Shown piece after piece: positions 7,145 through 64,000 of a stretch of DNA of 64,000 nucleotides. A program made the position numbers and the translations under genes. The notes under the pieces were generated by a model. That model was not told the origin of the DNA and searched no databases. It saw only the letters and a list, made by a program, of their open reading frames with translations. Source of the DNA: Escherichia phage MIZ4. The stretch's first letter is position 1. Each line of letters opens with the position of its first letter. The stretch is from sequence record OR167180; one strand, 5' to 3'.

Positions 7145-7465
7145 TTATTTATAAATTTCGACGATCTGCGCTGGAGTCAGCCCGTCTACATTAATCAGAC
7201 TATCAAGCCCAAAACTACGGAAACCTTCAACTGCAATTTCATATACTGGCAAAGATGTTTCTGATTCTTTACGCGGTTTTTCAACATTAGGAACTAACCA
7301 CTTTTCGTATGTTTCGAAAGGCATCAGTGCCGGATCTCGCGTGGCGATCATCTCGCGGACAGTACCATCTTTCTTAGTAAACTGCAAAGAGTAAGTACCG
7401 ACCGAAAACATTTTCTTTAGTGCTTCACGAAGTGCGATATTATCAATTTGTTCGGTCATTATCAA
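7145..7465 (-). CDS. hypothetical protein
   Basis: ORF track. Confidence 0.45.
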   Translation of the reverse strand: MIMTEQIDNIALREALKKMFSVGTYSLQFTKKDGTVREMIATRDPALMPFETYEKWLVPNVEKPRKESETSLPVYEIAVEGFRSFGLDSLINVDGLTPAQIVEIYK

Positions 7466-7958
7466 TACCCTTCAAATCAGTCAATAATGCTTTTGGAATA
7501 CGCGTAACCGTAATGTCGGCTTTATCCAAAATATCAGCCCAATCACGCCCACCATTTCGATCATATGTGTCGCAGTAATATATGTGTTTAATACCACTGT
7601 TTGCAATTGCTTTAGCGCAATCTGGACACGGTGAAGCAGTACACCACATACTAGCGCCTTCAATCGATACACCGCTACGGGCAGCAAACAAAATAGCATT
7701 TAATTCAGCGTGGATCTCGTTTTTCTGTGACCATGCACTATGCTCTGGTCGTTTTTCTGGGATCATTTTGCCGTCATCATCCAGCCAACCGCTTTTATGT
7801 GCATGACAGCTACAGTTTTCTTGCCCTGCTGGAGTGCCGTTAAATCCAGTAGAAATGATTCGCCCGTCTTTTTCGATCAGTGCGCCTACCTTCCACGAAA
7901 CACATTTAGAGTTCTTTGCTATTAGATAGGCGATCTGCATGTAAGTTTGTGACAACAT
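7443..7958 (-). CDS. cd: dCMP deaminase
   Basis: ORF track; HAE zinc-binding and PCxxC motifs (CSCHAHKSG ... HAELNAI ... ASPCPDCAKAI). Confidence 0.9.
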   Translation of the reverse strand: MLSQTYMQIAYLIAKNSKCVSWKVGALIEKDGRIISTGFNGTPAGQENCSCHAHKSGWLDDDGKMIPEKRPEHSAWSQKNEIHAELNAILFAARSGVSIEGASMWCTASPCPDCAKAIANSGIKHIYYCDTYDRNGGRDWADILDKADITVTRIPKALLTDLKGIDNDRTN

Positions 7959-7979: not shown

Positions 7980-8183
7980 TTAACCGTATACGCGAAAGTA
8001 TTCTACTGATCCGTCGCTATACTGTTTTACATTGAATGTATTCACACCATGATTATTTCTCATGATGACATATACACTGCGACGTTCATCGCTAAACGGC
8101 ATAACTGGCGCGGGTTCAATGTCAACACTAAAACCACGTTTAGCAAGTGCTTCTCCTAATTGCTTGAGTTTATCGGTAAACAT
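7980..8183 (-). CDS. hypothetical small protein
   Basis: ORF track. Confidence 0.45.
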   Translation of the reverse strand: MFTDKLKQLGEALAKRGFSVDIEPAPVMPFSDERRSVYVIMRNNHGVNTFNVKQYSDGSVEYFRVYG

Positions 8184-9082
8184 TAAAAGTCTCCGTAGTT
8201 AACCTGAAAACATTCTACACCAATTGAGCGGTACATGTCAACCACTTGATCACGGTCATCTACCGCCAAAACAACATGATAACGCGGTGCAATTTCAGAG
8301 AAGAAAATCTCTTTCTTCACTTCATGATCAGGACGACGATCATTAGTTTCACGTTGAAAGTGATCACTAGGTTCAATACCCTGTTCACGCAGCCATTGCA
8401 GAGTATCTTCTTCGCAAACATCCTCACGCCCTGAGCATGTAATGATACGATAACCATTATCACGATACAGTTTAAGCATTTCGATCACTTGCGGACGCGG
8501 TTTATCTTCTTTGACCTTTGTCCAGTCAAACGGATGACGACCGCCCTTATCCGCTAATGTCCCATCAATATCAAAGATCACTGCCTTTGGCAGCATGGTA
8601 TTCGGTTTGTATACTTCTTGACCCATATATTCCTGCATCAGATAAAATTGGTTACGCAAATGAGAAAGTGGAATTGCTTTCTCGCCGCGATAGAAATTAC
8701 GTTTCTTTAGTGTCTCAAACGGTTCATTGAACACTTGTTCAGTATACACCGCGTTAAATTCTTTTGCAAGTTCTTTATAGAATACACGATGTTTTTCTTT
8801 CAGGTTAGTATCAGAGATAATGATACTTAATCCGCGTGATAGAGTCTCACGAGCAATCATTCTCTGAATAGACTCTACCAGCTTTTCTTTTTCCTTAGTA
8901 TACTTGTATTTCAAATGTGAGTCAACACCAAACAACATAAGACGAAGGTCATCACGATTCACATTACGATAATTACTAAACCGTTTACATGTCTCCATAG
9001 CCCATGTAGTTTTACCGGACCCAGAACAACCAACGGTTAAAATCACTTCACATTTCGGCATTATTTCTCCTTCGGTTTGCAC
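8183..9082 (-). CDS. pseT: polynucleotide 5'-kinase/3'-phosphatase
   Basis: ORF track; P-loop GCSGSGKTT; HAD motif FDIDGTLA; C-terminal VECFQV..GDF like T4 Pnk. Confidence 0.92.
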   Translation of the reverse strand: MQTEGEIMPKCEVILTVGCSGSGKTTWAMETCKRFSNYRNVNRDDLRLMLFGVDSHLKYKYTKEKEKLVESIQRMIARETLSRGLSIIISDTNLKEKHRVFYKELAKEFNAVYTEQVFNEPFETLKKRNFYRGEKAIPLSHLRNQFYLMQEYMGQEVYKPNTMLPKAVIFDIDGTLADKGGRHPFDWTKVKEDKPRPQVIEMLKLYRDNGYRIITCSGREDVCEEDTLQWLREQGIEPSDHFQRETNDRRPDHEVKKEIFFSEIAPRYHVVLAVDDRDQVVDMYRSIGVECFQVNYGDF

Positions 9083-9513
9083 CGTTCCTCATTAAGTTCT
9101 TTTCGATAATAACACATGATCAACTTACTTTCAAGTGTATATCTCTTAATATCCGCAAGCCAGACTCTGAATTTTTGGGAGTCCTCCCACGACATAGAAA
9201 CTCTAGGTTTACCGTCTATTGTATCCACTTTCAGGTCAATGTCAACTTTTTCTATTGGTGCTGGTAGTGGAGGATGTAATTTCGGTTCCTGTGAATAATG
9301 GTCCATTGTACACGAAGAAAGCGCAAATACAATAGGCACAGCGAAGACATGGATTATGGCGGTCTGAAAATTCTTATGTGCTTTCTTAAACATCCAGTGT
9401 ATCACGAAAATTGAAAACACCATCAGGATAATAATGCTTGCACCTATCCACAGATAATCAACCAGATTAAAATGGCTTATCTGCTCTTGTGTAGGCAATA
9501 TTTCTATGCTCAT
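9061..9513 (-). CDS. membrane protein; possible o-spanin-like lipoprotein if an internal start is used
   Basis: ORF track; hydrophobic segments, candidate lipobox ALSSC followed by Pro-rich stretch and conserved Cys. Confidence 0.4.
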   Translation of the reverse strand: MSIEILPTQEQISHFNLVDYLWIGASIIILMVFSIFVIHWMFKKAHKNFQTAIIHVFAVPIVFALSSCTMDHYSQEPKLHPPLPAPIEKVDIDLKVDTIDGKPRVSMSWEDSQKFRVWLADIKRYTLESKLIMCYYRKELNEERCKPKEK

Positions 9514-9833
9514 TTAGTAGCCTCCTTTAATTCTTCGGTAAACTCCTTAAATGAATCATTAAGCTGTTTCTCTACCAACTTGGGTTTTTGTGCTACTACG
9601 TAGCCTCGTGTAGCGTCTTTCATTGCTTTGTTTTGTTCTTCTGTAAACTTAGTTCTTATTCCGTACATCTCCTTTTGTAGTGAGTCTACGACCTTCATCT
9701 TTTCATCGGTCTTTTTCTTATACTCTGTAAATTCCTGATTCAGTCGATCTACCTCCTTTTTATTTTCCCACCACATATTGCCACCTACCCCCAGCAACGC
9801 AGATATGATAACAATGTATATCAGCTTTGACAT
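9510..9833 (-). CDS. membrane-anchored protein with charged helical periplasmic domain; i-spanin-like
   Basis: ORF track 9510..9884 trimmed to ATG 9831-9833 (track N-terminus overlaps terminator hairpin); N-terminal TM then K/E-rich region. Confidence 0.4.
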   Translation of the reverse strand: MSKLIYIVIISALLGVGGNMWWENKKEVDRLNQEFTEYKKKTDEKMKVVDSLQKEMYGIRTKFTEEQNKAMKDATRGYVVAQKPKLVEKQLNDSFKEFTEELKEATK

Positions 9834-9877: not shown

Positions 9878-11047
9878 TTACCAATCAATCTTATCAGCCG
9901 GAATCAGTTTCTTATAATTCCGTAGATAGTAAGTTTTCATTGAATCCAGAATACGGTCATAATCAAGACCATCAAATGCAATCATCAGACACATGAAAAT
10001 ATATGCTTGTGCATCACCATGTTTACGCGATTCGATAGTCGCATTGGACGCATATGTCTTTCTGTCTTCTCCCGCGTGTGCGTTATAAAATTCTGTTGCT
10101 GTCGTAAAGGCATTGCGAAGAATAGACCTGAATGCTTCCTCGAATAGCTCGATTCGTTCCAGTGCTTCCGGTTCTCCTTCATATGCAGCACGCAAATCAT
10201 CGGTTTCGCTTTCTACGACATAGTAGATCAGGTTATTAGGAAACATCGATGTGTTTTTAATGTTATGCACACCAATATACCATTCACTCTTCACTTTGAA
10301 CAGTTGACCGTCTTTAGTGCGTGCAACAATTCCTTCGATACCTTCTGCGGTCCGAACTTCATCAAGAATATTGCTAAAACGCGCTGAATCAACCTGTAAC
10401 GCATTTACCAGATGAGGACGTAGGATTGAATCGGCGAATAGCATTTGATGCGGTACATACTCTCCTGTGACGTTATGGCGTACATTCAGAAGTGTTAGCG
10501 ACGGTTCAGAATATTCTACAACAATTCGGTTGCTGGGTGCTGTATATTCAAAGTTGAAAGTATAATCAGACCCAATATCAGCAATCTTAGCGCGTAGATC
10601 CGCATACTTCTCGGAATACAGAAGACCGTTTGCTCTCTCTGCCTGGCTTGAGTACAAGGCCGCTTTAGACTTCAACTGAACATAGCCGTTATCAATGTAT
10701 GTGCTTACTAGACTACCGTCCATTTTGTCCATGACCATTTCCACATCTTCCGGCTTAAAGCGAGCGCGATCATTCTCACCCAAATTAAAAAACTTCTCCA
10801 TAGGACGAGATGCAATGCGGACAGGTCGGTCTTTATCATCGATTTCAAACATGATCCCGCGACACTCTAACGCATCCGGTTTATTCCATATTTCCGGTTT
10901 GCTCAAGTACAGATAACTAAAAATGCGCATACGGGTTTGCATCGCCGTAATTTCATCTTTGTAATAGAACGTATCAGATCCGTCACATAGTGCCATCAGA
11001 TTTTTGAACAATGCTAAAACTTTTTTGTTGTTTTCTTTTGTTGACAT
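9878..11047 (-). CDS. rnlA: RNA ligase 1
   Basis: ORF track; collinear with T4 gp63 (ALECRGIMFE, VRIASRPMEKFFNL, DGSLVSTY adenylation lysine motif, RKTYA). Confidence 0.92.
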   Translation of the reverse strand: MSTKENNKKVLALFKNLMALCDGSDTFYYKDEITAMQTRMRIFSYLYLSKPEIWNKPDALECRGIMFEIDDKDRPVRIASRPMEKFFNLGENDRARFKPEDVEMVMDKMDGSLVSTYIDNGYVQLKSKAALYSSQAERANGLLYSEKYADLRAKIADIGSDYTFNFEYTAPSNRIVVEYSEPSLTLLNVRHNVTGEYVPHQMLFADSILRPHLVNALQVDSARFSNILDEVRTAEGIEGIVARTKDGQLFKVKSEWYIGVHNIKNTSMFPNNLIYYVVESETDDLRAAYEGEPEALERIELFEEAFRSILRNAFTTATEFYNAHAGEDRKTYASNATIESRKHGDAQAYIFMCLMIAFDGLDYDRILDSMKTYYLRNYKKLIPADKIDW

Positions 11048-11444
11048 AATTTGTGTTCCATTCTGGTTTAAATTTGGTGATCAAAACAGGTTCTTCGATA
11101 TCGGCAGTGCTTATAATATCCTTACCCGTTGGATTCTCAATATATAACTCAAAACACTGGCGGTAATAGAATGTTACTGTCTTACCTTCCTCTAGCGCAT
11201 TATGAATATTCTTACTCTTGCGAGTATCCGCTGTTGGTGTTTGTCTGTTAATGCTAGTCCGGTAATAATTGATCCGCTTTCTGAGATTGACAGTCTGACC
11301 AATGTATACCAGTTCATCATCAACCGCAATAGCGTAAAGAACATTTAAACGGTTTTTCTGAGGCGGTAGAATCACGTCACCATCTTTACACTCTAAACAT
11401 GAATATTTAACGAATCCATAGTTTTCTATTAGCTCATTAATCAT
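10983..11444 (-). CDS. denA: endonuclease II (GIY-YIG family)
   Basis: ORF track; VLYAIAVDDELVYIGQTVNLRKRINYYRT nearly identical in pattern to T4 EndoII. Confidence 0.9.
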   Translation of the reverse strand: MINELIENYGFVKYSCLECKDGDVILPPQKNRLNVLYAIAVDDELVYIGQTVNLRKRINYYRTSINRQTPTADTRKSKNIHNALEEGKTVTFYYRQCFELYIENPTGKDIISTADIEEPVLITKFKPEWNTNYVNKRKQQKSFSIVQKSDGTM

Positions 11445-17324: not shown

Positions 17325-18557
17325 TTATACTGCCATTTGAGCTGTGATTGCTGGATGGCTTTGATAGTTGTGAATTTTAAAGTCTTTCGGAGTCTTTGTC
17401 AATACCTCATCTAAAGATTTAAATTCCGGCAACTCAATTGTTGGTTTATCAAACGGAACACGGCTTAACTGTTCCATAACTTGATCAAAATGGTTTTTGT
17501 AAATGTGAGTATCTCCACCAGAGAAAATCAGTTCTCCTACCTCAAGATCACACATTTTCGCTATGATGTGAGTTAACAGCGCATAGCTGGCAACATTAAA
17601 GGGCAAGCCCAAAAAGCTGTCTACGCTTCGCTGAAACCACATACAAGACAATTTACCTTCATTGACATAGAATTGCACGAAAGGATGACATACACCTAAT
17701 ACAGCATTATGTGTTCCTTGTACGTTCCATGAGTCAATAATGATCCGGCGATCCGTTGGATTGTTTTTAATTTGTTCAATCACGTTTTGTAACTGGTCTT
17801 CCCAAATCTTCGGGCGATAGACATATTCTTCATCGTCTTTAGTGCTCGATGTGTCTACGTCCATACTAGCAAAGATCGTGGTATCTGGTGCTAAAATATC
17901 CCCACCCAGATAATCACTATCAAGTAGATAACCGAAATAACCATCATCTACCCATTCCTGGAATCCCCACAAGCAATATGCATCATTAACAAAATTAGAT
18001 TGAGTCTTCCAGTGATCTGCTACTAAGAATTGATTATATTCAGAATCAAACTCTTCATAACGCATACCACGCCAGATAGCACATAAACGGTCTTCTGTTT
18101 CATTGGTTGGAGTAAAGTCTTCTACCCACGGGTGCTTAAATGTATGTGTATATTTGCTCTTAACGCGCTTAATTTTGATTTCACCGTGTGGATGAATCGG
18201 TTTGCGTCGCCACGCCATACCATACATATTGCCGACATTATAACCATTGAATCGCAAAGGATTCTTTTCTTTCATATCAAGACAGTTACCGCGCCAAATG
18301 TCGAAGGCTTCTTCGTCAAACTGTCCGCGTGTAATTTCCTGTAAGCGACGGCGGTCAAGTGATCCCTCCATAAACCATAGCAATTCGCCAATTACAGAGG
18401 CTGTAGCCATCTTTTTAGTTGTCAGTAATGGAAAACCCTTGCTTAAGTCAATTCGCATCTCTGCGCCGAATTTAGAGAGCGTACCTACCCCCGTGCGGTC
18501 TTCACGAGGCCAGCCATTATCAAGAACATCACGCAATAGTTTCAAATATTCTTTCAT
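17325..18557 (-). CDS. td: thymidylate synthase family protein with ~125-aa insertion in the small domain; no intron
   Basis: ORF track; DRTGVGT, catalytic CHPFVQFYV, RSVDSFLGLPFNVASYALLTH; insertion between YGMAWR and DQLQNV. Confidence 0.85.
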   Translation of the reverse strand: MKEYLKLLRDVLDNGWPREDRTGVGTLSKFGAEMRIDLSKGFPLLTTKKMATASVIGELLWFMEGSLDRRRLQEITRGQFDEEAFDIWRGNCLDMKEKNPLRFNGYNVGNMYGMAWRRKPIHPHGEIKIKRVKSKYTHTFKHPWVEDFTPTNETEDRLCAIWRGMRYEEFDSEYNQFLVADHWKTQSNFVNDAYCLWGFQEWVDDGYFGYLLDSDYLGGDILAPDTTIFASMDVDTSSTKDDEEYVYRPKIWEDQLQNVIEQIKNNPTDRRIIIDSWNVQGTHNAVLGVCHPFVQFYVNEGKLSCMWFQRSVDSFLGLPFNVASYALLTHIIAKMCDLEVGELIFSGGDTHIYKNHFDQVMEQLSRVPFDKPTIELPEFKSLDEVLTKTPKDFKIHNYQSHPAITAQMAV

Positions 18558-41117: not shown

Positions 41118-41319
41118 ACTTTCCCTCCAAAAATTCTTTCATCAAATAGTCTATCGTTGCTCTGTGTTCTGGTGTGTTTGTTATCTCTGCTAACTTGTTC
41201 AGAGATTCAATAGTGATCCGGTTGGCTTCTTCCATAGTCTCAACGACCATTGGTACAATCTTTTTATTGTTGTACACGAAAGCCACATAACCGCCTTCTG
41301 GATATTCTTTCATAATCAA
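41110..41319 (-). CDS. hypothetical small protein
   Basis: ORF track. Confidence 0.45.
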   Translation of the reverse strand: MIMKEYPEGGYVAFVYNNKKIVPMVVETMEEANRITIESLNKLAEITNTPEHRATIDYLMKEFLEGKYD

Positions 41320-42695
41320 CCCTTCTTAAGTTCTTTAAGATCTTTCTTATATTCCTTCATTGCGGTCGTCTTTGTCCAATACTCATATTCACTATGATGT
41401 TTATCGGCATCTTTGACCAGTCGATCATACTCTTCTTGAGTAACGCTATACAATGGCATAGAAACTAGCTTATCGGCGTATGGACGCAGTTTTTCATGTC
41501 CATTGATGGATTGCATTACCTCGGCCTTTTTCTTGCCCTGTAGCTCGATTTCGCCCTTAATTACGCGATCGATAAATTCAGCTTTAGCCATTGCATAATT
41601 GTATGCTTCCAGCGTTTCCGCTTGCATCAATTCAATTCGTTTATCTACATACCCTAATCGGATTTCGACGAATCGACGGATCAGATCGCTCGCTTTCTCG
41701 AATACTTCTACTAAACCACGTTCATTAACCACTACGATATTCTGGGCTACTAACTGTGTTAGTTTAAAATCCTTCATGATTTGCTCATGTCGAGCGGATT
41801 CATCTTCGCTTTTGAAATAATCGCGTTTCAGTGTTACTTCAAATCTGAATCCATCCTTAGAGCAACGGTCATTATACGATACAATCAGATCTTTTTCTTC
41901 CAGTGCATCCAGTACCGCTACATATTCTTCACGGTCGAACTTATAAGGAACTTCTGATATTGTCAGCTTAGTCTTGCCGTTTAGTTCATATGTACCCTCA
42001 AGAATCACACCATCGCGGTCATCACGAGGGATAACTTTACCCGTGAATTTCGGGAATTGAACACTAGGTTCTTTATCCAGTTTTCCGGCGAGTGCTAGCT
42101 CTGTGCATTCAATAAGGCTTTCCAGTGAATGCGGTAAAATGTCAGTTTTATACCCTGTAGCAATACCACTAATACCATTAGCCAATACCATTGGCACAAC
42201 TGGCAAGTAGAACGCTGGCGGGATGTGTTCCAGATCTTCGTGCTTAGGTGCGCAATTCATATCTTTATAGATTTTAAAGAAGTTTTCATGCACACGAGCA
42301 AAAATATAACGTGCTGCACCTGCTTTCTGGACTAAACGCGATCCGAAGTTACCTTGACCGTCAAGCAGTGGAGTATTATTGCTCCATGTATTCGCCATGA
42401 GTGATCCGGCTTCTACGGCATTAGTTTCCCCGTGGTGATACCCCAACTCAGCGACACCAGATCCAATATCTGCCATCTTACGGAATTTCTTACGGTCGCC
42501 TTTACTCTTTTGCAAAGCACATTCCATAACAAAGCGTTGCACTGGTTTAAGCCCATCCACTAATTGAGGAATCCCGCGTTCCTCGGCAGAATAGATCGCA
42601 TATTCCTTAGCTTCATTATGTACAATGCTTTCAAGGCTGCGGTAAGTAAATGTGTTTACAATTTGACTAATTTTATCCATCTTCACCTCATACAC
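41316..42695 (-). CDS. 52: DNA topoisomerase II medium subunit (GyrA-like)
   Basis: ORF track; GLKPVQRFVM N-terminal motif; 459 aa. Confidence 0.9.
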   Translation of the reverse strand: MYEVKMDKISQIVNTFTYRSLESIVHNEAKEYAIYSAEERGIPQLVDGLKPVQRFVMECALQKSKGDRKKFRKMADIGSGVAELGYHHGETNAVEAGSLMANTWSNNTPLLDGQGNFGSRLVQKAGAARYIFARVHENFFKIYKDMNCAPKHEDLEHIPPAFYLPVVPMVLANGISGIATGYKTDILPHSLESLIECTELALAGKLDKEPSVQFPKFTGKVIPRDDRDGVILEGTYELNGKTKLTISEVPYKFDREEYVAVLDALEEKDLIVSYNDRCSKDGFRFEVTLKRDYFKSEDESARHEQIMKDFKLTQLVAQNIVVVNERGLVEVFEKASDLIRRFVEIRLGYVDKRIELMQAETLEAYNYAMAKAEFIDRVIKGEIELQGKKKAEVMQSINGHEKLRPYADKLVSMPLYSVTQEEYDRLVKDADKHHSEYEYWTKTTAMKEYKKDLKELKKG

Positions 42696-43050
42696 GCTTA
42701 CAAATCACATTCTTTACTTTATCAGATTTATCAGCCCAATCCAATAGCCATTTTAACGGAAGGATTGACACAATAAACGGGGCAGCAATCAAAGCAAACA
42801 TGATACACCTGATAATCAGGAAAACGCAAGTGACAAAACTAGCGATAGAGATCCCGACAAAACAAAATACCATAGAAAACAGAGTAATGATATAGAAAGG
42901 CCAGAATACCCACTCCCGCATCTTAACGCCTTTGTATTCTCTGAATTGCTTAAAATCTACAAACAACTCTCGGATAGACGCGTACAGGACCGAAAAATCA
43001 TCTTTCATTGCTCTGAATGAGCAATCTTCTATTTTAGAATGACCTAGCAT
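42688..43050 (-). CDS. integral membrane protein
   Basis: ORF track; three hydrophobic helices. Confidence 0.5.
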   Translation of the reverse strand: MLGHSKIEDCSFRAMKDDFSVLYASIRELFVDFKQFREYKGVKMREWVFWPFYIITLFSMVFCFVGISIASFVTCVFLIIRCIMFALIAAPFIVSILPLKWLLDWADKSDKVKNVICKRV

Positions 43051-43052
43051 TA

Positions 43053-43346
43053 TTAACCGCCTTTAACCATTGATACCGGAATTGTTTTCTGATTTGTGTA
43101 TAATTGGCCTACTTCAATTTTTTCTTGAATCACCACGACGTTACAATATCCACTGTCTTTAAGTTTTCTGATAATAACTCGCTTTTGTTCGTCGGTGATA
43201 GGATTGACTGTTCTCACCAATTCACCGCAAATAATAGCACCATCTTTACAATTACCAGTAACTTTCATGCTACGACCGTGAACAACAACCGCATCACCGT
43301 AAATCACATTTTCGTCGTCGTATTTGGTAATAACCGTGACCGTCAT
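43053..43346 (-). CDS. hypothetical protein
   Basis: ORF track. Confidence 0.45.
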   Translation of the reverse strand: MTVTVITKYDDENVIYGDAVVVHGRSMKVTGNCKDGAIICGELVRTVNPITDEQKRVIIRKLKDSGYCNVVVIQEKIEVGQLYTNQKTIPVSMVKGG

Positions 43347-43391
43347 AATGTATTCCCTCTAAGAAAGGCCGCGCAAAGCGGCCTATGTTGA

Positions 43392-43718
43392 TTATTGTTC
43401 TACAGTATAGCCGTTGTTTTCAAGCCATGCAATAACAATCTTTTCGCCAATTTCATCGAGCATTTCATCAGCGCCATATTCTTTAATGAAAGTCGATGGA
43501 TCATTATTGCTTACTACGTGCTGGATCACAACATGTTCAGGAATTGCGTCTAGCAGTTCGCTATGATCATACTCATTAACGATATCTTCAACACTAACAT
43601 TATTAACCAAATCAACATCATCCATAGTCACAGTAACGCGACCGGACGGACGCAATGAATATTGGCTACTTTCAACTTCAACATGTGCACTTTCGCAAGT
43701 AACTTTCATATCAACCAT
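43392..43718 (-). CDS. hypothetical acidic protein
   Basis: ORF track. Confidence 0.45.
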   Translation of the reverse strand: MVDMKVTCESAHVEVESSQYSLRPSGRVTVTMDDVDLVNNVSVEDIVNEYDHSELLDAIPEHVVIQHVVSNNDPSTFIKEYGADEMLDEIGEKIVIAWLENNGYTVEQ

Positions 43719-43732
43719 AATTAATTCCTCTG

Positions 43733-44734
43733 TTAGTAATGGCTAAAACCTTCGGTTACATCTTCAACCACATAGTAACGATGACAGCGCATTTTGGCAT
43801 TCGCATAATCTTTCGGGATACTTACAACGTGACGCGGATCAACTTTACATTTAATGATTCGGCCTCGTCCACCGCCATAGTGCGGAATATAGTGTTTCGC
43901 TGCAACGTGGAGTCCATTAGAGCAAGTGCGATCATCATCTGGGTCCACGTCTTTACGCTTCATTTTAACCGTGCGCCCTGGGCTATTATCAAACGTATGC
44001 GTAAAGAAATCTTTATAATCAACATCAACACGTTTCCATGCATAGAAACAACCATCTTCCCCGATCTCAATGTCGTTGTGCTCTAAGAAGTCAAATAGAC
44101 GATCTACCGCCTTACGGCTAGGGTTTTTCTTGCACTTCTCAAAGAAGTTCAGATAGTGCGTATATGGCTTATTCTCTTTAATCGACTCCACAACTCGACG
44201 AGTCAGATTATTATCAAGAACAATATTATGATAATACACAATACCATTTTCGATACGGAAAGCGCCGTGATAATATACTTCAACCGCTTTCTTAATGTCA
44301 ATCAGCGTAATAGCTTTGATGAAATCATTATGTTTAATCACTTCCAGTGCTTCATTAAAGTTAACATGCGACGGATCAGCAGTATAAACAATGTCACCAC
44401 ATGTAATAGTAATAAACTTAGTTGAGGCTATTGCTACGATTTTTGAGGAAGTAGTCACGGGCTTTTTTGCGCGTTCACCTCCTTTTCCTTTACTGGTTTT
44501 ACGGCGTGCTTTACGTTTTTCTAGTGCCTTGCGACCTTCCGCTACTGCGTCTTTCTGAATCAGTAATACACGGGAAGCAGTACGACGAGATACCCCAAAT
44601 GCTGCCGCAAGTGCTTCGCGGGTAGTAAACTTACCTTCGCCCCACTGTTTAGCCAGTTTGATTTGTTTTTCAGAATCCAGGCATTGAACGTTACGGTCAG
44701 AGACGGTGATTTTTGCTTTAGTCATAGTATTCAT
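43733..44734 (-). CDS. rIIB: rIIB protein
   Basis: ORF track; collinear with T4 rIIB (VSRLFDFLEHNDIEI.EDG.FYAWK, FDNSPG..VKM.R, CSNGLHV, YEVVEDVTE). Confidence 0.92.
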   Translation of the reverse strand: MNTMTKAKITVSDRNVQCLDSEKQIKLAKQWGEGKFTTREALAAAFGVSRRTASRVLLIQKDAVAEGRKALEKRKARRKTSKGKGGERAKKPVTTSSKIVAIASTKFITITCGDIVYTADPSHVNFNEALEVIKHNDFIKAITLIDIKKAVEVYYHGAFRIENGIVYYHNIVLDNNLTRRVVESIKENKPYTHYLNFFEKCKKNPSRKAVDRLFDFLEHNDIEIGEDGCFYAWKRVDVDYKDFFTHTFDNSPGRTVKMKRKDVDPDDDRTCSNGLHVAAKHYIPHYGGGRGRIIKCKVDPRHVVSIPKDYANAKMRCHRYYVVEDVTEGFSHY

Positions 44735-49965: not shown

Positions 49966-50799
49966 TCATTCTCCGTCAGTTCGTTTCAGATATTCCAATG
50001 CCGCATATAATCTCTGAGGATCGTCTTTGAACATCCCTAATCCGGCATTACATTTTCCACAAAGAACACCTCTTATCTTACCAGTCTTATGATTATGGTC
50101 AAGATGTTTCCACTTTTGGCGTTTTCTCACGCCGCATCGTTCATTTATGAATTTTACACCGCATATCTCGCAATTGTCAACTCTGCCTAAAATTTCTAAC
50201 GCTTCTCTTTTTGATATTTTTATACCATTTTCGGCATGATGATATGGCCTATCTAGTTCTCGCTCTCGCTTCTCAAACAATCGACACTCATCAGAACAAT
50301 ACTTTTGAGATACGTTTATTGCAACAAATGGTTTACCACATTTAGCGCATTCTCGTTCAATCTTTATGTTTTGTGCTTGGTCCAACGATGCGCAACGAGA
50401 ACAGCAAAATTTATGATATCCTTTAGAGTATGTATGATAATTTACAGGATTTGGGCATCTTGCACATTTAACTATTCCTGTTATTCCGTGGCGCAATCTA
50501 TAAACAGCCTCGTTATATGGTTGTTGATTTCTGAGACCTCCATTACAGAACTTAAACTCATTCCTTATAATCTGAAATTCCGCAGGATACAATTTTTCCA
50601 TTTCTGGAATTTTATTTTCTTTAAAAAGATTTGAGTTTAGTCTATTTCCGCTTTTCGCCTCCAGAACATCAACAATAAACTTTTTGATGTTCACTTTTTC
50701 TCTCCAATACATAACATAACCATAACTTACTGCAACCGCCACAAAGACGGCTGCAACAATCATATTAAAAATTGAGTGATTGTCAAGTATATGACTCAT
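49966..50799 (-). CDS. membrane-anchored protein with zinc ribbons and endonuclease VII-like His-Cys box
   Basis: ORF track; N-terminal TM; C-terminal KHLDHNHKTGKIRGVLCGKCNAGLGMF resembles T4 endo VII catalytic motif. Confidence 0.55.
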   Translation of the reverse strand: MSHILDNHSIFNMIVAAVFVAVAVSYGYVMYWREKVNIKKFIVDVLEAKSGNRLNSNLFKENKIPEMEKLYPAEFQIIRNEFKFCNGGLRNQQPYNEAVYRLRHGITGIVKCARCPNPVNYHTYSKGYHKFCCSRCASLDQAQNIKIERECAKCGKPFVAINVSQKYCSDECRLFEKRERELDRPYHHAENGIKISKREALEILGRVDNCEICGVKFINERCGVRKRQKWKHLDHNHKTGKIRGVLCGKCNAGLGMFKDDPQRLYAALEYLKRTDGE

Positions 50800-55157: not shown

Positions 55158-55682
55158 TTAGTAGCCGCGTTCTTGACGGGCGAAGTTTTCAGCATTTTTC
55201 AGATAGTACAGAATAAAGAGTTCTTGAGCGTCAATACCCAGCGGGATCATCTTTGACAGAATGAAGTGGATCGCGTCCACAAATTCAAATTTCACTTCAA
55301 GCTGATCTTCTGGTGACAGTTCAGAGAATTTACGCGCTCGCGCTTCTCCGTGGTTCTTTTTCCACATTTTCCAGATTGCACTTGCATCTTTACCATTGGA
55401 CATTCCACCCAGCGATGTGTAAAGCTCTCGTGTTTCGTCTGCGATAGCGTCATCCATCCGTTGCATCCAATCCAGCATTTCACCGCAAGTCTCTAGCTTA
55501 GTTGGATTTGGGACCCAATCAAATTTTTCGGATAATGCAACCTGCAAACCAGTTTGCATTTCGAGCATCACCTGAAACGGATCTTTACCTTCTGCAATCG
55601 CGTGATGATATGCGGCGATAGCCGCGTTAATATCTTTTTCGTTAACCAGACCAGCACAAGAATTAAATTCTGACATATTCAC
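55158..55682 (-). CDS. 56: dCTPase/dUTPase-like nucleotide pyrophosphatase
   Basis: ORF track; collinear with T4 gp56 (EKDPFQVMLEMQ, KLET.GE.LDWM, EMSPEDQLE.KFE.VD, LYYLKN.ENFARQ.RGY). Confidence 0.9.
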   Translation of the reverse strand: MNMSEFNSCAGLVNEKDINAAIAAYHHAIAEGKDPFQVMLEMQTGLQVALSEKFDWVPNPTKLETCGEMLDWMQRMDDAIADETRELYTSLGGMSNGKDASAIWKMWKKNHGEARARKFSELSPEDQLEVKFEFVDAIHFILSKMIPLGIDAQELFILYYLKNAENFARQERGY

Positions 55683-58346: not shown

Positions 58347-59759
58347 TTAGAAAGTCATGTTATTTGCTAGCTCGTCGAGTTTTTCTCGTTTCTCGGCTTG
58401 CTGTGCGCTTTGTGGTTTAACTTGTGCATTCTCCTGATCTGCGATCTGGTTTGGTACTTCATACCAACGCTGATTGCCTTTCTTCACACCAACGTTAAAC
58501 CGTGAATAATAGTTCTTATCACCGTAACGAGACTTGATCTGCTTCATGAGTTGGACGCCCATTTTAGCCAGGTCTTCGGTTTCGATAACACCCAACATAA
58601 AGTCGGCAGTAGCCGGAAGACCTGCTGATTCAGCGGTATCACTCATGTTAAGGTCGGAAGCATCCCAACCCGCGCGGGTAGTCTGTGCCGCAGTCCAACC
58701 AACAACATCCCACTTAACAAAAAATCCTCGCAGTTCTTCCGCAATCGCCTTAACTAGTGTGTAACTATTTTCAGAGTATACACGCAAGCGAGACGATGCG
58801 CAAATCCCAAGATAGTCAACAATCACAACATCAGGTTTAAACTGTTTCTTGAGTCGCAATTCATTCATTAACGCCTCAAAGTGATTGGAGTTCGCGCCAC
58901 CAGTCGGATACTGCTTGATCATCAATTTTCCAACCGGACGATCTCCGATCTTCTTATTCTTAACACGCTTCATGCGTGCGGAATATTCCGCAAAAGAAAC
59001 ATTACCATTATCCAATTCATCTAATGTAATGTCAAGCAAGTTTGCGTCGATACGTTTGGCTACGACATGCTCTGCCATCTCCATTGAGATATACAATACA
59101 TCATAACCACATTCCATATAATCCGCAGCAAGAGAACACAATCCAAGCGATTTACCAACGTTTACACCAGCAAGCAACACATTTAGCGTTTTTCTTTCCG
59201 CCCCTCCTTTCGTGATTTTATTCAACATCGGCAGCTTAAACGGGATCTTATTCGCCTTAGTCTGATATAGCAAGAATCGTTTTTCAAAGTCATTAAACCA
59301 GTCATGACCTACATCAGAATCAAACGTAATGGATAGTGCTTCCTGCATGATCTCAGGAATAGCACCCTCACTAGGCAATTTCTTATTCTGTTTCTCTTTT
59401 GGTAGTTGTGCGTTCGCCTGAATCTCTAGCGCCCGTGACATTGCATTGTACATAGCACGGTCACGAATAAATTTTTCGGTTTCCTTCATTAACCAATCAA
59501 GGTCTTCCGGTGTATTCTCAAGCGAATCAAGAAGAGTTTTAGCCCCTTCATATGTTGTCTGATTGCCTCTCTCCTTGTCTAAAGCAATCTGTAATGCAGT
59601 TGGCGTAGGAATATTGGAATATTCGTCTACGTGCTTTTTAATCAGCTTATAAATCAGTTTTTCTTCGTCTTCGGTGAAGTAGTCCGCTTTAAGGTGAGGC
59701 CATACATTCGTAAAGAATGCGCCATTGTAAATCAACTGTGAAAAGATAGTTTTAATCAT
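58347..59759 (-). CDS. 41: replicative DNA helicase (DnaB-like)
   Basis: ORF track; Walker A AGVNVGKS; 470 aa. Confidence 0.92.
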   Translation of the reverse strand: MIKTIFSQLIYNGAFFTNVWPHLKADYFTEDEEKLIYKLIKKHVDEYSNIPTPTALQIALDKERGNQTTYEGAKTLLDSLENTPEDLDWLMKETEKFIRDRAMYNAMSRALEIQANAQLPKEKQNKKLPSEGAIPEIMQEALSITFDSDVGHDWFNDFEKRFLLYQTKANKIPFKLPMLNKITKGGAERKTLNVLLAGVNVGKSLGLCSLAADYMECGYDVLYISMEMAEHVVAKRIDANLLDITLDELDNGNVSFAEYSARMKRVKNKKIGDRPVGKLMIKQYPTGGANSNHFEALMNELRLKKQFKPDVVIVDYLGICASSRLRVYSENSYTLVKAIAEELRGFFVKWDVVGWTAAQTTRAGWDASDLNMSDTAESAGLPATADFMLGVIETEDLAKMGVQLMKQIKSRYGDKNYYSRFNVGVKKGNQRWYEVPNQIADQENAQVKPQSAQQAEKREKLDELANNMTF

Positions 59760-60073
59760 ACATAGCCCCCAACTACACGCATAACAAAGGTCTTGAGTTT
59801 ATACCAGAAAGTTTCTTTTTTCAACTTTTCTTCTGCTTCTTTGATTTGCGCGGTTAACGCCTTAATGACGTGTGGATATACCACATCACGATCTGACGGC
59901 GTGGAGTAGTCGACCACAATACCTTTAGTGTCTGGATCGTATTCAACATTATGAATATAGACAATATGATGTTCTCCCTCTTCATCAACAATTATCAATT
60001 CCTGAATAACTGTCTTCATTGCTTCTTGAATCAAGCTGTGTGCTTCTTCTAAACTTGTTGGTTTCTTATCCAT
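59756..60073 (-). CDS. 40: gp40 (synteny-based)
   Basis: ORF track; between uvsX and 41. Confidence 0.5.
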   Translation of the reverse strand: MDKKPTSLEEAHSLIQEAMKTVIQELIIVDEEGEHHIVYIHNVEYDPDTKGIVVDYSTPSDRDVVYPHVIKALTAQIKEAEEKLKKETFWYKLKTFVMRVVGGYV

Positions 60074-60095
60074 AATATAATCCTCTCTAGATATG

Positions 60096-60115
60096 AAAAA
60101 GGGGCACGTAGCCCC
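60096..60115 (-). terminator. hairpin GGGGC-tacgt-GCCCC plus TTTTT on minus strand downstream of uvsX
   Basis: read directly. Confidence 0.5.
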
Positions 60116-60128
60116 TTTACTACCATTG

Positions 60129-61199
60129 TTATGCTAACATATCTTCGATTTCTTTGTCAACTGCTTCGTCGCTGATCACTTGCCCCAGCTTATAATGATC
60201 GTTGATTGCTTCGTTAAACTTATCGTTTGTCAGAAGTGGTTTCCAGAACTCAATGCTATTGGTTTCTTTAGCACGGAACTTGCGTTCTTCTGTTTCCATC
60301 TCTCCGGTCTCGGTATTTAGGATTGAACGAGAATACCAGCCGTTTGACGGTTTCACTACCCAGCCTAACTCTACAGCCAATTCCAGCAAGCCGGAATAAG
60401 GATCGATGCCACCGCTAAATGTTACGCTAATCGGGAACTTCGATTTTTCTTTAACGGTTCGTGATTTTTCCGCATTCAGGATAAAATCATAACCAGTAAT
60501 TTCGGTTCCTTCTTTCTGCTGACGACGACCAATAATGAAAACTTCATTGGCTGAATACATCGCGCCCGTACCGCCGGACATAACGGTCTTACTAAACATT
60601 TCTTGCGTTTCGTAAGTGTGGTTAATAGCGATGCACGGGATATCATTCATAGTCAGATACGGCGTAACCATACGGAACAAGCCTTTAAGTGCTTTCGCTC
60701 GCGTCATATCCTGTGCGGATTTCTCATTAATCGCGTCTTCAACTTCTTTTTTACTTGCCAAGTTACCGATTGAGTCAATAAAGATGATCACTTTATCTTC
60801 ACGGGTAATTTGCTCAAGCTGGTTCATGATTTCAAATTTAAGTTCTTCGATGTTCTTGATTGGAACATGCACTACGCGATCAGGATCTACGCCCATAGAT
60901 TCCAGATAAGCGGGCGTAATACCGAACTCAGAATCAAAGAACAAACAAGCCGCATCGGGATTCTGTTTCATGTATGCACTAACACAAGTTAATCCCATGT
61001 TTGATTTAAAGTGCTTAGACGGACCAGCAAAGAAAATCAGACCAGATTGAAAGCCTTTTTTAAGATCACCGGAAAACGCAATATTCAGCATCGGGATCTT
61101 AGTGCGAGTATTTGTTTTTTCGTTAAAGAAGCTGGATTTAGACAGTACCGCAGTAGTTTTCAGGGTAGAGTTCTTTTTCAGTTTTTCCAGTACAGACAT
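60129..61199 (-). CDS. uvsX: recombinase UvsX (RecA-like)
   Basis: ORF track; collinear with T4 UvsX (KIPM.NIA.SG, GPSK.FKSN, NHTYETQEMFSKTVM.GGTG). Confidence 0.93.
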   Translation of the reverse strand: MSVLEKLKKNSTLKTTAVLSKSSFFNEKTNTRTKIPMLNIAFSGDLKKGFQSGLIFFAGPSKHFKSNMGLTCVSAYMKQNPDAACLFFDSEFGITPAYLESMGVDPDRVVHVPIKNIEELKFEIMNQLEQITREDKVIIFIDSIGNLASKKEVEDAINEKSAQDMTRAKALKGLFRMVTPYLTMNDIPCIAINHTYETQEMFSKTVMSGGTGAMYSANEVFIIGRRQQKEGTEITGYDFILNAEKSRTVKEKSKFPISVTFSGGIDPYSGLLELAVELGWVVKPSNGWYSRSILNTETGEMETEERKFRAKETNSIEFWKPLLTNDKFNEAINDHYKLGQVISDEAVDKEIEDMLA

Positions 61200-61210
61200 T
61201 ATTAATACCT

Positions 61211-61438
61211 CTATTCAGTTAATCCGTAATACTTTAATTGCTTCATTGTTATTCGACCTTTGTAGTGCTCTTGAATTAACTTTTTCATCGCATCAACATC
61301 GATCGTCACAAATACTTCGTTGCTGTGATTTCCGTGAACTTTCTTGAAATGCTCTATGCCTTCCTCACGTTCACGTTTAATCTTTTCAATGTCTCTCATA
61401 ATATATTTCTCACGTTGGCGGGTATCGTCACCCAACAC
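61211..61438 (-). CDS. hypothetical small protein
   Basis: ORF track. Confidence 0.4.
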   Translation of the reverse strand: MLGDDTRQREKYIMRDIEKIKREREEGIEHFKKVHGNHSNEVFVTIDVDAMKKLIQEHYKGRITMKQLKYYGLTE

Positions 61439-61460
61439 CCGCCATTATACACACTTTATC

Positions 61461-62939
61461 TTAAATGTCAAACAGGTCAGTCAGAGATGCCACTTTTTCA
61501 TATTGCAGCTTTGCAGCCGTGGTAATGTTCTCCAGTGGTTTGACGAAAGTCTTATTAAACAACAAAGGCCAGTCCAACCACTTCAACACCTCTGATTCAA
61601 TTTCTGGCGGAATACGAGTACCAGACAACCAACCAAAACAGATTTCACCAAACGGATTTCGATCTTTCAGCGGTACAATCATAACCTTCTCGCCCTCACG
61701 AATCGGATCTAGTCCGAATTTTCGAGCATTACGATTATAACACAATACACTCTTAACCGCATACGGACAACCCTTAATCGGATACCCGTTTGAATCGCTG
61801 TATTTCTGTAGGTTGTTTGCAGATGATACCGCAGCAACATCAAGATAGTCAAGTTTTCTAAATTCTTGCTCAAAAATACCGTAGTATTCCTGCAATGAAT
61901 CTTCACCTTCCTGCAACATACGGCGAATACATTCTTTCAGTGATTTCTGACATGCTTTAGGGGTGGAGCTACGTTGCGTTTCCAAGCCCATGATTTTTAG
62001 CTTAGGTTCAGCAAAGCGCGTTCCTTCCATATCCCAAACATTAAGAGCATACCGCTTTTTACCAGTCCAGAATCCACCGATACCCGCAGATTTCAACGGA
62101 GGACCAGCAATTGCCTCTCGGTCCATAAACATCAAGTGCTCATAGTTGTTCATGTACTCGCATAACTCGCGATATCCCTTGTCGATAATAGGTTCCATTC
62201 GATGTTTACCGAAATTATCAAGGAAGTCAACAAGTTTTTCGGTATCGTCGAAACGGTCTTCCCCGCCAACCTTATCAATAACATTGTTAACCAGCACATA
62301 AACGGAGTCAGTATCACAATAACGAACATATGCAAAATCAGTCGTTCCGCAAAGCTCGTTTAAGTATTCGTTAATCTTACGCTCAATCCACTGAATTGCA
62401 AGCTGACCGAACAGTGTGATCGCACTAGCGTTACGGAGATCATAAAAACGGAATTTAGGATTCCCCAACGCACCATAAAGGGAGTTGATCAAAACTTTTC
62501 GAGAAAGCTGGTTTGTATTGCACAAGATCGACTCGTCTTTACATTCTTCCAGCAATTTCTCTAAGGCATCTTTACTTAATTCAGAAAGCATCGATTTAAA
62601 CGCTTCATCAAAGTCGTGACGCACTTCAACGCTATAGCTAATGGTTCCCCCATAAACATGATTTTCATCGTGTAGAATCGCTTTACATAGTTCAGCATTG
62701 CGATCACATGCCAACATCATGTTTTTGTACTGCTTACGCTGATCGAATACCTTTTTAATCTCAATCGGTACGATACCATGAATATCTTTTCGATACATCC
62801 ATCCGTTAGGCGAGCAAGAATACTCATCACTAGGACGCGGTGCAGTTTTATTGATATACTCGTGCATCGGTGCAGCATCAAAAGATCCAGCGATTGTTTC
62901 AGGCGAAATATTAACCTGACGGATGATTGATGGATACCA
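61461..62939 (-). CDS. 43: DNA polymerase gp43, 3' exon (C-terminal ~490 aa); 5' exon lies beyond the window
   Basis: ORF track 61461..62867 extended in frame to the stop at 62940-62942; YPSIIRQVNISPETI (motif A), YCDTDS (motif C), KKRYALNVWDMEGTR. Confidence 0.85.
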   Translation of the reverse strand, partial: WYPSIIRQVNISPETIAGSFDAAPMHEYINKTAPRPSDEYSCSPNGWMYRKDIHGIVPIEIKKVFDQRKQYKNMMLACDRNAELCKAILHDENHVYGGTISYSVEVRHDFDEAFKSMLSELSKDALEKLLEECKDESILCNTNQLSRKVLINSLYGALGNPKFRFYDLRNASAITLFGQLAIQWIERKINEYLNELCGTTDFAYVRYCDTDSVYVLVNNVIDKVGGEDRFDDTEKLVDFLDNFGKHRMEPIIDKGYRELCEYMNNYEHLMFMDREAIAGPPLKSAGIGGFWTGKKRYALNVWDMEGTRFAEPKLKIMGLETQRSSTPKACQKSLKECIRRMLQEGEDSLQEYYGIFEQEFRKLDYLDVAAVSSANNLQKYSDSNGYPIKGCPYAVKSVLCYNRNARKFGLDPIREGEKVMIVPLKDRNPFGEICFGWLSGTRIPPEIESEVLKWLDWPLLFNKTFVKPLENITTAAKLQYEKVASLTDLFDI

Positions 62940-64000
62940 TTATGTTCAGCGCGGTTCGCTACTCCCGCGCCCGTTCTCTTGCGAACTGCTACATGTCACC
63001 ATGTAGATCAGACTATATCACATTCTCATAGAGAATCCTGCCATTTCGAATCGCTTGATTCTACTCTACTCGGTTCGTTACCCTTTCGATAGTCGTTGAA
63101 CAACTGCATCTTTAAGCTCATTTTGATCAAACGGTGTTCTCTTACAGTACCCGCTATAATTCTTGGCAAAAGGTTTCTTCTTACCAAAGATCTCTTTTCC
63201 TGAATTATGTGCTTCAACAAGAAAATTCACCATTTCATCAAATGTGAAACTTGTAAATTTAGCATAAGTTTCATTACGTTTTGACATTATTTTACTCATA
63301 ACTTCCGGTCGTTTAGACGCTGAATTTTCGCGCTTCTCGCCAGCATTAAATGATACTAACTCACCGGAAACATATCTAGGATCATCACAACTAACTCTAA
63401 ACCGATTTCCTTCCTTATCCTTAACGATAACAGTATTCTTTAGCTTTTCTGCCATAGAATCAAGACCTTTTCGTATAGTGTCCTCATCAGCCCCGAAATA
63501 TTTCTTTCCGCTCATATCGGTTCTGGCTTTTCCGGTCTTGTTTTCGGATATTTTCAGTCTAACTTCCTCTCGCTTGGCTGGGTTATTGTCTCCAGCGAAT
63601 GCATCTTTGGTTAACGCCTTCACTTTATCGTCATAAGATCCTCTAGAGATGAAAGCATATGCTCTCTTGCATTCACCGTTATTGAATATTAAGCACAATA
63701 ACCGATGCGCCTCGACGTGGTCTTCAAACTTAAGCCTAACAAGATTCCATTTATCTAACCGATATTCAGGGAACATTGACTTCGGGCATATATGATGCAC
63801 CTCGGAATATTCTTCACCCTGATACGGATTAGACACCAGTTTAATGTAGTCGTTTAATGCTTCCTCGTTATGTATTTCGTACTTTCTTAAAATGTCTTTC
63901 ATCTCGCGCCTCCAATGTATATCAATATTTATATACATTATAAGACACGTTAGCTCAAAATGCAACTGCTGCTGATTGTCTCCTTAGAGATTTCCCAGCA
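62940..64000 (-). mobile_element. intron-like insertion (probable group I intron, 3' part) in gene 43 carrying an HNH endonuclease ORF
   Basis: in-frame stop inside Pol-B motif A, ~140-nt structured noncoding segment, endonuclease ORF, no 5' exon before window end. Confidence 0.6.
63078..63902 (-). CDS. HNH homing endonuclease with NUMOD-like repeats (intron-encoded)
   Basis: ORF track 63078..63965 trimmed to ATG with GGAGG RBS; EVHHICPKSMFPEY...WNLVRLKFEDHVEAH; GDNNPAKREEVRLKISE and NSASKRPEVMSKIMSK. Confidence 0.7.
   Translation of the reverse strand: MKDILRKYEIHNEEALNDYIKLVSNPYQGEEYSEVHHICPKSMFPEYRLDKWNLVRLKFEDHVEAHRLLCLIFNNGECKRAYAFISRGSYDDKVKALTKDAFAGDNNPAKREEVRLKISENKTGKARTDMSGKKYFGADEDTIRKGLDSMAEKLKNTVIVKDKEGNRFRVSCDDPRYVSGELVSFNAGEKRENSASKRPEVMSKIMSKRNETYAKFTSFTFDEMVNFLVEAHNSGKEIFGKKKPFAKNYSGYCKRTPFDQNELKDAVVQRLSKG

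Follow-up and report, generated by a model that had tools for sequence, protein, structure and literature searches.

The interval between uvsX, coding for a RecA-like recombinase, and gene 43, coding for the DNA polymerase, is one of the places in which phage T4 carries genes for the hydroxymethylcytosine (hmC) of its DNA. Here we describe this interval, together with the other loci at which T4 genes of this kind would be expected, in a 64,000-nucleotide stretch of Escherichia phage MIZ4 (sequence record OR167180), referred to below as the window. Positions 59700-64000 of the window match phage MIZ5 (OR167181.1; Straboviridae, Krischvirus) at 100% identity over their full length in megablast searches, and RB49, JSE, ECD7 and about 60 related coliphages at 98-99%. 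Moreover, the whole window coincides, again at 100% identity, with positions 32001-96000 of the MIZ5 genome exactly, and no difference between MIZ5 and the window was noted. With respect to RB49, identity amounts to 98.5% over 3.2 kb, and the gene order 41-40-uvsX-ORF025c-43-regA-62-44 is colinear. Judged by these sequence comparisons, the window is part of the genome of a Krischvirus, that is, a phage of the RB49 or 'pseudo-T-even' type. The MIZ5 genome, of 165,508 bp with 267 annotated coding sequences (CDSs), served for the genome-wide searches reported below, and the window covers 39% of it. No tRNA genes were found in the window by ARAGORN; Table 2 of Petrov et al. 2010 (PMC2993671) gives 0 tRNA genes for RB49, phi1 and JSE.

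The uvsX gene (60129-61199, minus strand) codes for a protein of 356 amino acids, with 64% identity to T4 UvsX (tblastn, E = 5e-152), and is annotated as such in MIZ5 and RB49. Just 261 bp separate it from gene 43, whereas the T4 counterpart of this interval measures about 3.6 kb and reads, in the T4 record, uvsX-segA-beta-gt-42-imm-imm.1-43. The original prediction, made from the letters of the window, had placed beta-gt, gene 42 and imm between the two genes of T4, which is right, the T4 record adding segA and imm.1 to the list. No remnants of hmC genes were seen within the 261-bp interval. One explanation for such a short interval would be that a single isolate has lost sequence recently, or that its assembly is faulty; the gene 43 region is, in fact, plastic in T4-like phages (PMC2839356), and the interval contains a recombination-prone element, described below. 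Nevertheless, the interval is found at full length and with 95-100% identity in all 58 of the 58 matching records, which were sequenced independently, include RB49, JSE, ECD7 and GEC-3S, and all belong to RB49-related phages of E. coli and Shigella. The conservation in every matching record makes it a property of the group and not a quirk of one isolate or assembly. In addition, alc, denB, alpha-gt and arn are missing from four further, separate loci, so that the probability left to an accident in a single isolate is close to negligible.

What the interval does contain is a small open reading frame (ORF). The original prediction had placed here a single ORF of 75 amino acids (61211-61438); the ORF exists, while its length is probably 62 amino acids rather than 75 (61211-61399, minus strand), as the ATG at 61399 is the start annotated in MIZ5, RB49 (as ORF025c), ECD7 and JSE. 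The GTG at 61438, from which the 75-residue version would be read, sits within a stem-loop, 6 nt past a -10 box. The 62-residue product (RB49ORF025c) matches phrog_12120, a family with no assigned function, over 62 of its 62 residues (E = 8e-42), and this is its sole family match, no Pfam family having been found for it. Upstream of the ORF lies a region (61402-61471, minus strand) in which consensus matching and folding identify an early promoter followed by a stem-loop. Specifically, a predicted sigma-70 promoter, TTGACA-16-TATAAT, at 61471-61444 matches the consensus at 12 of 12 positions, with its -35 box overlapping the stop codon of gene 43, and a hypothetical early promoter is annotated at the identical spot of the RB49 record. 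The promoter is followed by a G/C-rich hairpin of 12 bp, with a folding energy of -24.1 kcal/mol (z = -6.5), a stability that none of 200 shuffled sequences equalled.

This arrangement recalls the PeSL (promoter-early stem-loop) cassettes described in RB49 and phi1 by Arbiol et al. 2010 (PMC2839356), who also report PeSL-like sequences in the plastic gene 43 region. In those phages, PeSL and ORFan cassettes likewise consist of a strong sigma-70 promoter, a G/C-rich stem-loop and a small orphan ORF downstream, and likewise occur in the gene 43 region; the element between uvsX and gene 43 was not found among those listed there, and ORF025 is not named. On this evidence, the uvsX-43 junction is a small PeSL-like cassette, with a predicted promoter driving the 62-residue ORF.

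The absence of beta-gt, gene 42 and imm from one interval does not tell whether these genes are located elsewhere, and the original prediction had fairly limited itself to leaving both possibilities, another location or absence, undecided on the basis of the window. T4-like genomes have a mosaic structure, the window represents less than half of a 165.5-kb genome, and some genes, for example dam, do lie outside it. A relocation of gene 42, the glucosyltransferases, alc and denB beyond the 64-kb window would therefore be conceivable. The whole MIZ5 genome shows instead that they are absent. In particular, 25 T4 proteins were searched against the complete MIZ5 genome by tblastn in six frames, thus including the search for gene 42, alpha- and beta-gt, alc and denB homologues that the original prediction had proposed. 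No match at E <= 0.1 was obtained for beta-gt, alpha-gt, imm, imm.1, alc, denB, ndd, motA and asiA: both glucosyltransferases remained at E > 0.5, and the best values for alc (E = 0.26) and denB (E = 0.14) do not correspond to credible homologues. The arn product, which in T4 is directed against McrBC, gave only a weak match of 46 amino acids (E = 0.016), and the only match of T4 gp42 fell inside the thymidylate synthase (23% identity, E = 0.006). In the same type of comparison, T4 proteins whose genes are present are easily recognized, with identities of 52-58% for gp43, 55% for Cd, 46% for Dam, 44% for PseT, 42% for RnlA and 44% for RIIB.

The annotation agrees with this result, as none of alc, denB, arn, 42 and the glucosyltransferases is found among the 267 annotated CDSs. 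Moreover, 26 MIZ5 ORFs with no name or a vague one, 132-489 amino acids long and distributed over the whole genome, were screened against Pfam; the screen gave no domain of a glycosyltransferase, of a TET/JBP dioxygenase or of another ThyA-like protein, the glycosyltransferase result holding for every unassigned ORF of at least 143 amino acids, and no family of the T2/T6-type TAGT was matched, the latter having been checked through Pfam alone. The domains that the screen did return were DEAD-like P-loop, endonuclease VII, LprI, CYTH, SLT, Macro, RlaP, HAD and gp30.3. Since the six-frame search covered the whole genome and gave no homologue, the modification genes are absent and not relocated. 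Published surveys point in the same direction. Thus, the presence elsewhere of recognizable homologues is refuted by the whole-genome search, and a location beyond the window, as a general explanation, is extremely unlikely. As far as homology can reveal them, 42, alpha-gt, beta-gt, alc, denB and arn, together with the neighbouring imm and ndd, are absent from the genome.

Local comparisons with T4 lead to the same picture, as alc, denB, alpha-gt and arn occupy in T4 four separate loci besides the uvsX-43 interval, and T4 synteny is kept in the window at uvsX/43, at pseT/spanins/rnlA/denA and at rIIB/52. In T4, the order is pseT, pseT.1, pseT.2, pseT.3, alc, rnlA (63), denA. In the window, alc is not present between pseT (8183-9061) and rnlA/63 (9878-10996), as the original prediction had noticed. 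The two membrane proteins seen there in its place are not, however, a substitution: they are an Rz-like spanin pair (9061-9776, minus strand), homologous to pseT.2 and pseT.3 (tblastn E = 7e-19 and 7e-10; phrog_812 and phrog_739), which are found at the same place in T4. Given that the spanin pair is in its T4-equivalent position, only alc and pseT.1 are missing from this locus. Similarly, T4 carries denB.1, denB, ndd.x, ndd, stp and ac between gene 52 and rIIB, while in the window neither denB nor ndd is present between gene 52 (41316-42680) and rIIB (43733-44725). Three small ORFs of 120, 97 and 108 amino acids are found there (42688-43718, minus strand), which match phrog_16033, phrog_14759 and phrog_14049, all of unassigned function; the absence of denB next to rIIB is thus confirmed and extends to the entire genome. 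RB49 and the other Krischvirus phages considered (phi1, JSE, ECD7 and MIZ5) share the gene order and the early promoter, and all of them are without 42, the glucosyltransferase genes, alc, denB, motA and asiA. As a separate observation, the missing motA, asiA and ndd homologues of MIZ5 agree with reports that RB49-like phages do not have middle-mode transcription of the T4 type.

Two genes could in principle hide a modification activity under another name. The thymidylate synthase gene td (17325-18557, minus strand) is the sole ThyA-superfamily gene of the genome (Pfam PF00303, E = 1e-84) and codes for a protein of 410 amino acids; owing to this unusual length, it was checked for dCMP hydroxymethylase identity. 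In the ThyA superfamily, the residue at the position of Asp179 of gp42 switches pyrimidine specificity. The Asn of the PFN motif of Td aligns with Asp179 of T4 gp42, and the protein passes the NCBIfam equivalog model TIGR03284 with 283.6 bits against a cut-off of 108; together, these two features rule out td as a disguised dCMP hydroxymethylase. The extra length of Td corresponds to an in-frame insertion of about 136 amino acids (residues 118-253), for which T4 Td and the Pfam and NCBIfam models have no equivalent and which may be an extra domain or what is left of a mobile element. The other candidate is a second DNA methyltransferase-like gene, located outside the window among baseplate genes (MIZ5 genome 153348-154187, plus strand). 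Its product contains an NPPF amino-methyltransferase motif and shows similarities of the Eco57I/N6 type (Eco57I/MTS/HemK-like). The NPPF motif led to the rejection of a cytosine-C5 activity that would supply a TET-type pathway, and families of the TET/JBP and TAGT kind were not found. The 'DNA-cytosine methyltransferase' attributed to the RB49 group by Nikulin and Zimin 2021 may be this same gene.

In contrast to the genes discussed so far, two members of the T4 hmC network are present, as the original prediction had stated. The gene 56 homologue (55158-55676, minus strand) codes for a protein of the dCTPase/dUTPase family, an all-alpha NTP pyrophosphohydrolase of 172 amino acids with 49% identity to T4 gp56 over the full length (173 aligned amino acids, E = 2e-50). 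It belongs to phrog_173 and marginally passes the Pfam model dUTPase_2 (PF08761), with 24.8 bits against a cut-off of 22.9; no related solved structure was found in the PDB. The denA homologue (10983-11444, minus strand) codes for endonuclease II, a GIY-YIG enzyme of 153 amino acids with 50% identity to T4 DenA over the full length (E = 2e-42). It matches the structure of T4 endonuclease II (PDB 2WSH; phmmer E = 5e-39) and carries 'VLYAIAVDDELVYIGQT' in the conserved GIY-YIG region; the Glu of its 'DIEEP' motif aligns with the catalytic E118, the position mutated in E118A, while the score against the Pfam GIY-YIG model, 21.7 bits, stays slightly below the cut-off of 22.6. If the T4 network is taken to include 42, 56, 1, alpha-gt, beta-gt, alc, denA, denB and arn, what the two phages have in common is 56, denA, cd, td, frd, nrdAB and an annotated deoxynucleoside monophosphate (dNMP) kinase (gene 1), whereas 42, alpha-gt, beta-gt, alc, denB, arn, imm and ndd are possessed by T4 and missing genome-wide from MIZ5. 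Among the shared genes, cd (7443-7958, minus strand) codes for a dCMP deaminase clearly homologous to T4 Cd (E = 1e-57).

The coexistence of denA and 56 with the lack of modification genes carries an implied paradox in the original prediction. The paradox dissolves when the distribution of the genes is considered, as both are more widely distributed than gene 42. According to Table 4 of Petrov et al. 2010 (PMC2993671), gene 56 occurs in all but the giant phages and denA in all but Acinetobacter phages and cyanophages; both are classified there as quasi-core 'auxiliary metabolism' genes, denA with the comment 'limited cleavage'. The same table places gene 42 in the T-even phages, JS98, RB69, CC31, Acinetobacter phages and some Aeromonas phages, and not in the RB49 type, while for alc and denB it gives the 'same distribution as gene 42'. 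In other words, 56 and denA are widespread nucleotide-metabolism genes of T4 relatives and no hmC markers, and their conservation is due to their belonging to this widely common set rather than to the hmC module.

A different history can be imagined, in which the Krischvirus ancestor had hmC DNA, gene 42, alc, denB and the glucosyltransferases were then lost, and 56 and denA, re-purposed or decaying, survive as relics of that state. Consistent with it, the identity of gp56 and DenA to their T4 counterparts, about 50%, is similar to that of core replication proteins, and the hmC module is widespread in T4 relatives infecting enterobacteria, Acinetobacter and Aeromonas (PMC2993671). Both genes, on the other hand, are intact and of full length, and DenA keeps the catalytic Glu and a well-conserved GIY-YIG region. 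Moreover, the loss would have had to occur at no fewer than five separate loci, that is, at least five. Both genes are also found in many lineages that are without gene 42, the RB43 type included, and 56 even in cyanophages, which favours both being older than the hmC module. All in all, the relic scenario appears improbable.

Under the widespread-metabolism explanation, plausible functions can be proposed for the two proteins. No other dUTPase is annotated among the CDSs of MIZ5, and gp56 would act chiefly as the only dUTPase of the phage, keeping uracil out of the DNA. Working with Cd, Td, Frd and NrdAB, it would channel dUMP, including that derived from dCMP through Cd, to Td for the synthesis of dTMP, in a genome of 60% A+T. 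Its dCTPase activity would be too low to starve replication, unlike the lethal drain of dCTP in T4. DenA, in turn, would introduce limited, context-dependent cuts in the host DNA for nucleotide salvage, and methylation has been suggested as the shield of phage DNA from this enzyme (PMC8056088). RB49 transduces plasmids at frequencies of 1e-4 to 1e-6, a behaviour that fits a weak, incomplete destruction of cytosine DNA where denB, ndd and alc are missing.

The gene pattern described here is already documented for phages of the RB49 type. In the account of Nikulin and Zimin 2021 (PMC8056088), phages of the RB43 and RB49 groups 'only have DenA and dCTPase-dUTPase homologs', and none of the enzymes known to serve non-canonical bases; the authors pose the same question as the original prediction, and the same pattern is stated for Krischvirus in a paper of 2025 (PMC12115623). 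The chemistry of the DNA is also on record for close relatives. HpaII and NheI cut the DNA of RB49, which contains neither hmC nor its glucosylated form, ghmC (PMC4041780), and the DNA of Krischvirus TB34 consists of canonical nucleosides only, as determined by high-performance liquid chromatography and mass spectrometry (PMC13390438). A gene 42 homologue in another part of the genome, accompanied by hmC in virion DNA, would have turned the original prediction around; what is seen is no homologue, and relatives with unmodified cytosine. Taking the published tables together with the RB49 and TB34 chemistry, the present finding re-derives a documented property.

A report on the Durham Collection, published in 2026 (PMC13390438), does not fit this scheme. 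There, Krischvirus SAP was found to carry about one third 5-hydroxymethyl-deoxycytidine (5-hmdC) and about two thirds alpha-gentiobiosyl-methyl-deoxycytidine, and its DNA is cleaved by BrxU. The SAP genome is 99.96% identical to that of TB34, and neither a pathway nor an informative single-nucleotide polymorphism (SNP) was found; its modification profile is shared by seven Tequatrovirus phages that belong to the same collection. Taken at face value, SAP would speak for a cryptic pathway of cytosine modification in Krischvirus, unrelated to gene 42 and to the known glycosyltransferases, in which gp56 and DenA would have T4-like roles. In its boldest form, Krischvirus phages such as this one would replace cytosine with hydroxymethyl- or glycosyl-cytosine by means of enzymes with no recognizable homology to gp42 or any known DNA glycosyltransferase, toggled by few nucleotide differences, with gp56 and DenA as the visible remnants. 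Such a pathway would make sense of the retention of denA and of a gp56 that is 49% identical to the T4 dCTPase, and many ORFs with no known function could host it. Several observations, however, speak against it. The nearly identical TB34 is canonical and the SNP analysis gave no lead, RB49 DNA is unmodified, none of the unassigned MIZ5 ORFs of at least 250 amino acids is transferase- or ThyA-like, and alc and denB, which in T4 are directed against cytosine DNA and presuppose a modified phage genome, are missing. As the profile of SAP is the same as that of the seven Tequatrovirus phages, a mixed or swapped DNA sample is, in our judgement, no less likely than a new pathway. Both in the general form and in that of a toggled system, a hidden Krischvirus pathway is thus very improbable.

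The phage is, in our view, very probably a Krischvirus with ordinary cytosine, in which the T4 hmC network is absent and not relocated, and in which 56 and denA are kept as part of general nucleotide metabolism. Some points weigh against this conclusion. In T4, gene 56 must be inactivated to obtain cytosine DNA, that is, an active T4 gp56 is incompatible with cytosine DNA, and a homologue of 49% identity in a cytosine phage needs explaining. The substrate preference proposed for the Krischvirus gp56 and the sparing of phage DNA by DenA are both inferred, the literature having yielded no enzymology of an RB49-type or Krischvirus gp56. A modification enzyme unlike every known family may hide among the many small ORFs with no function. 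If the SAP report is real, moreover, the lack of the known genes does not guarantee canonical cytosine; in the records searched, data on DNA chemistry were found for RB49, TB34 and SAP and none for MIZ5.

The gene 43 side of the junction deserves a description of its own, as the polymerase gene of the window differs from that of RB49. RB49 gene 43 is uninterrupted, whereas that of the window carries a 1114-nt predicted group I intron with an HNH ORF. Coding sequence of gene 43 is indeed present from 61461 onwards; nevertheless, the segment 61461-62937 (minus strand) represents only exon 2, and the end coordinate of the original prediction, 62939, falls at the 3' splice site (62937/62938) and is not the start of gene 43. 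Exon 2 corresponds to residues 413-897 of T4 gp43 (tblastn 58% over 491 amino acids) and to nt 1203-2679 of RB49 gene 43 (98.1% in blastn). Accordingly, residues 4-412 and 413-897 of T4 gp43 align to two separate blocks of MIZ5. With RB49, nt 1-1191 and 1203-2679 of gene 43 align, leaving between them 1125 unaligned nt in MIZ5, which are made up of the 1114 nt of the intron and 11 recoded exon nt. The 3' part of the intron occupies 62938-64000 (minus strand) and the element continues to MIZ5 genome position 96051 (window-equivalent 64051). It contains an ORF for an HNH homing endonuclease of 274 amino acids (63078-63902; phrog_12434, E = 6e-131).

The Rfam group I intron model RF00028 is matched at 62989-63249 over its full length, with 32.8 bits (E = 3.4e-6), which stays short of the gathering score (50). 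The junction reads ...GAC CTT ACT TCC CT / AAACTG...CATAATG / G TAT CCA TCA, where the slashes mark the ends of the insert; the 5' exon ends with U and the insert with G. When the exons are joined, the codons CTG-TAT (L-Y) are formed and the sequence D-L-T-S-L-Y-P-S, which is PolB motif A, is restored exactly as in RB49. Gene 43 is therefore split at motif A by a putative group I intron, whose splicing is predicted. In exon 1, beside the intron (genome 96052-96062; window-equivalent 64052-64062), 7 of 11 nt differ synonymously from RB49 (TTAACAAGTCT -> CTTACTTCCCT), and this recoding would fit either a recoding of the homing-endonuclease target or the pairing requirements of P1.

Petrov et al. 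2010 (PMC2993671) noted a putative intron in gene 43 of JSE, in which the endonuclease gene is truncated. The JSE intron has the same insertion site and the same junctions, and its 5' and 3' segments are 99% identical to those found here; it measures only 464 nt because an internal deletion of 644 nt has struck the ORF, leaving a relic, while MIZ5, ECD7, Cognac and others keep the full 274-residue HNH ORF. Among the megablast matches, the full insert is present in 11 records and the relic in 2 JSE records, and the other related ones have none. The minimum free energy fold of the JSE intron region gave a z of only -1.8, a value from which nothing can be learned for an RNA with tertiary structure such as a group I intron. 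In the GenBank records, the two exons figure as two separate 'DNA polymerase' CDSs and not as a spliced gene. Another nuclease of this kind may be encoded between gene 39 and an FmdB-like gene, where a Cys-rich ORF of 277 amino acids (49966-50799, minus strand; genome 81966-82799) ends in a domain recognized by Pfam as endonuclease VII (E = 7e-16); although annotated as hypothetical, it may represent another homing-type nuclease. Outside the window, MIZ5 also has a cluster of paralogous ORFs of 154-274 amino acids (genome 109090-111422 and 115245-115739, minus strand), which share the motif 'W-E-x-G-K-T-Y-x-W-K-D-V' at the N-terminus and resemble a coiled coil at the C-terminus; no convincing Pfam family was found for them, one member having two sub-threshold matches.

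A comparison with the RB43 type (Pseudotevenvirus), known here from the literature alone, completes the picture. According to PMC8056088 and PMC12115623, these phages are likewise devoid of enzymes for non-canonical bases, keep DenA and the dCTPase/dUTPase, and transduce plasmids. They are reported to have, in addition, ndd and a C5-cytosine methylase homologue, neither of which was found in MIZ5.

What has been obtained is the textbook difference between T-even and 'pseudo-T-even' phages, re-derived from raw sequence, and as it stands it carries little weight. For the annotation of phage genomes, the finding means that the presence of 56 and denA is no evidence for hmC DNA. For the phages themselves, it means that those of the RB49 type should be susceptible to CRISPR as well as to ordinary restriction, and should transduce plasmids, an aspect that is relevant to the safety of phage therapy.

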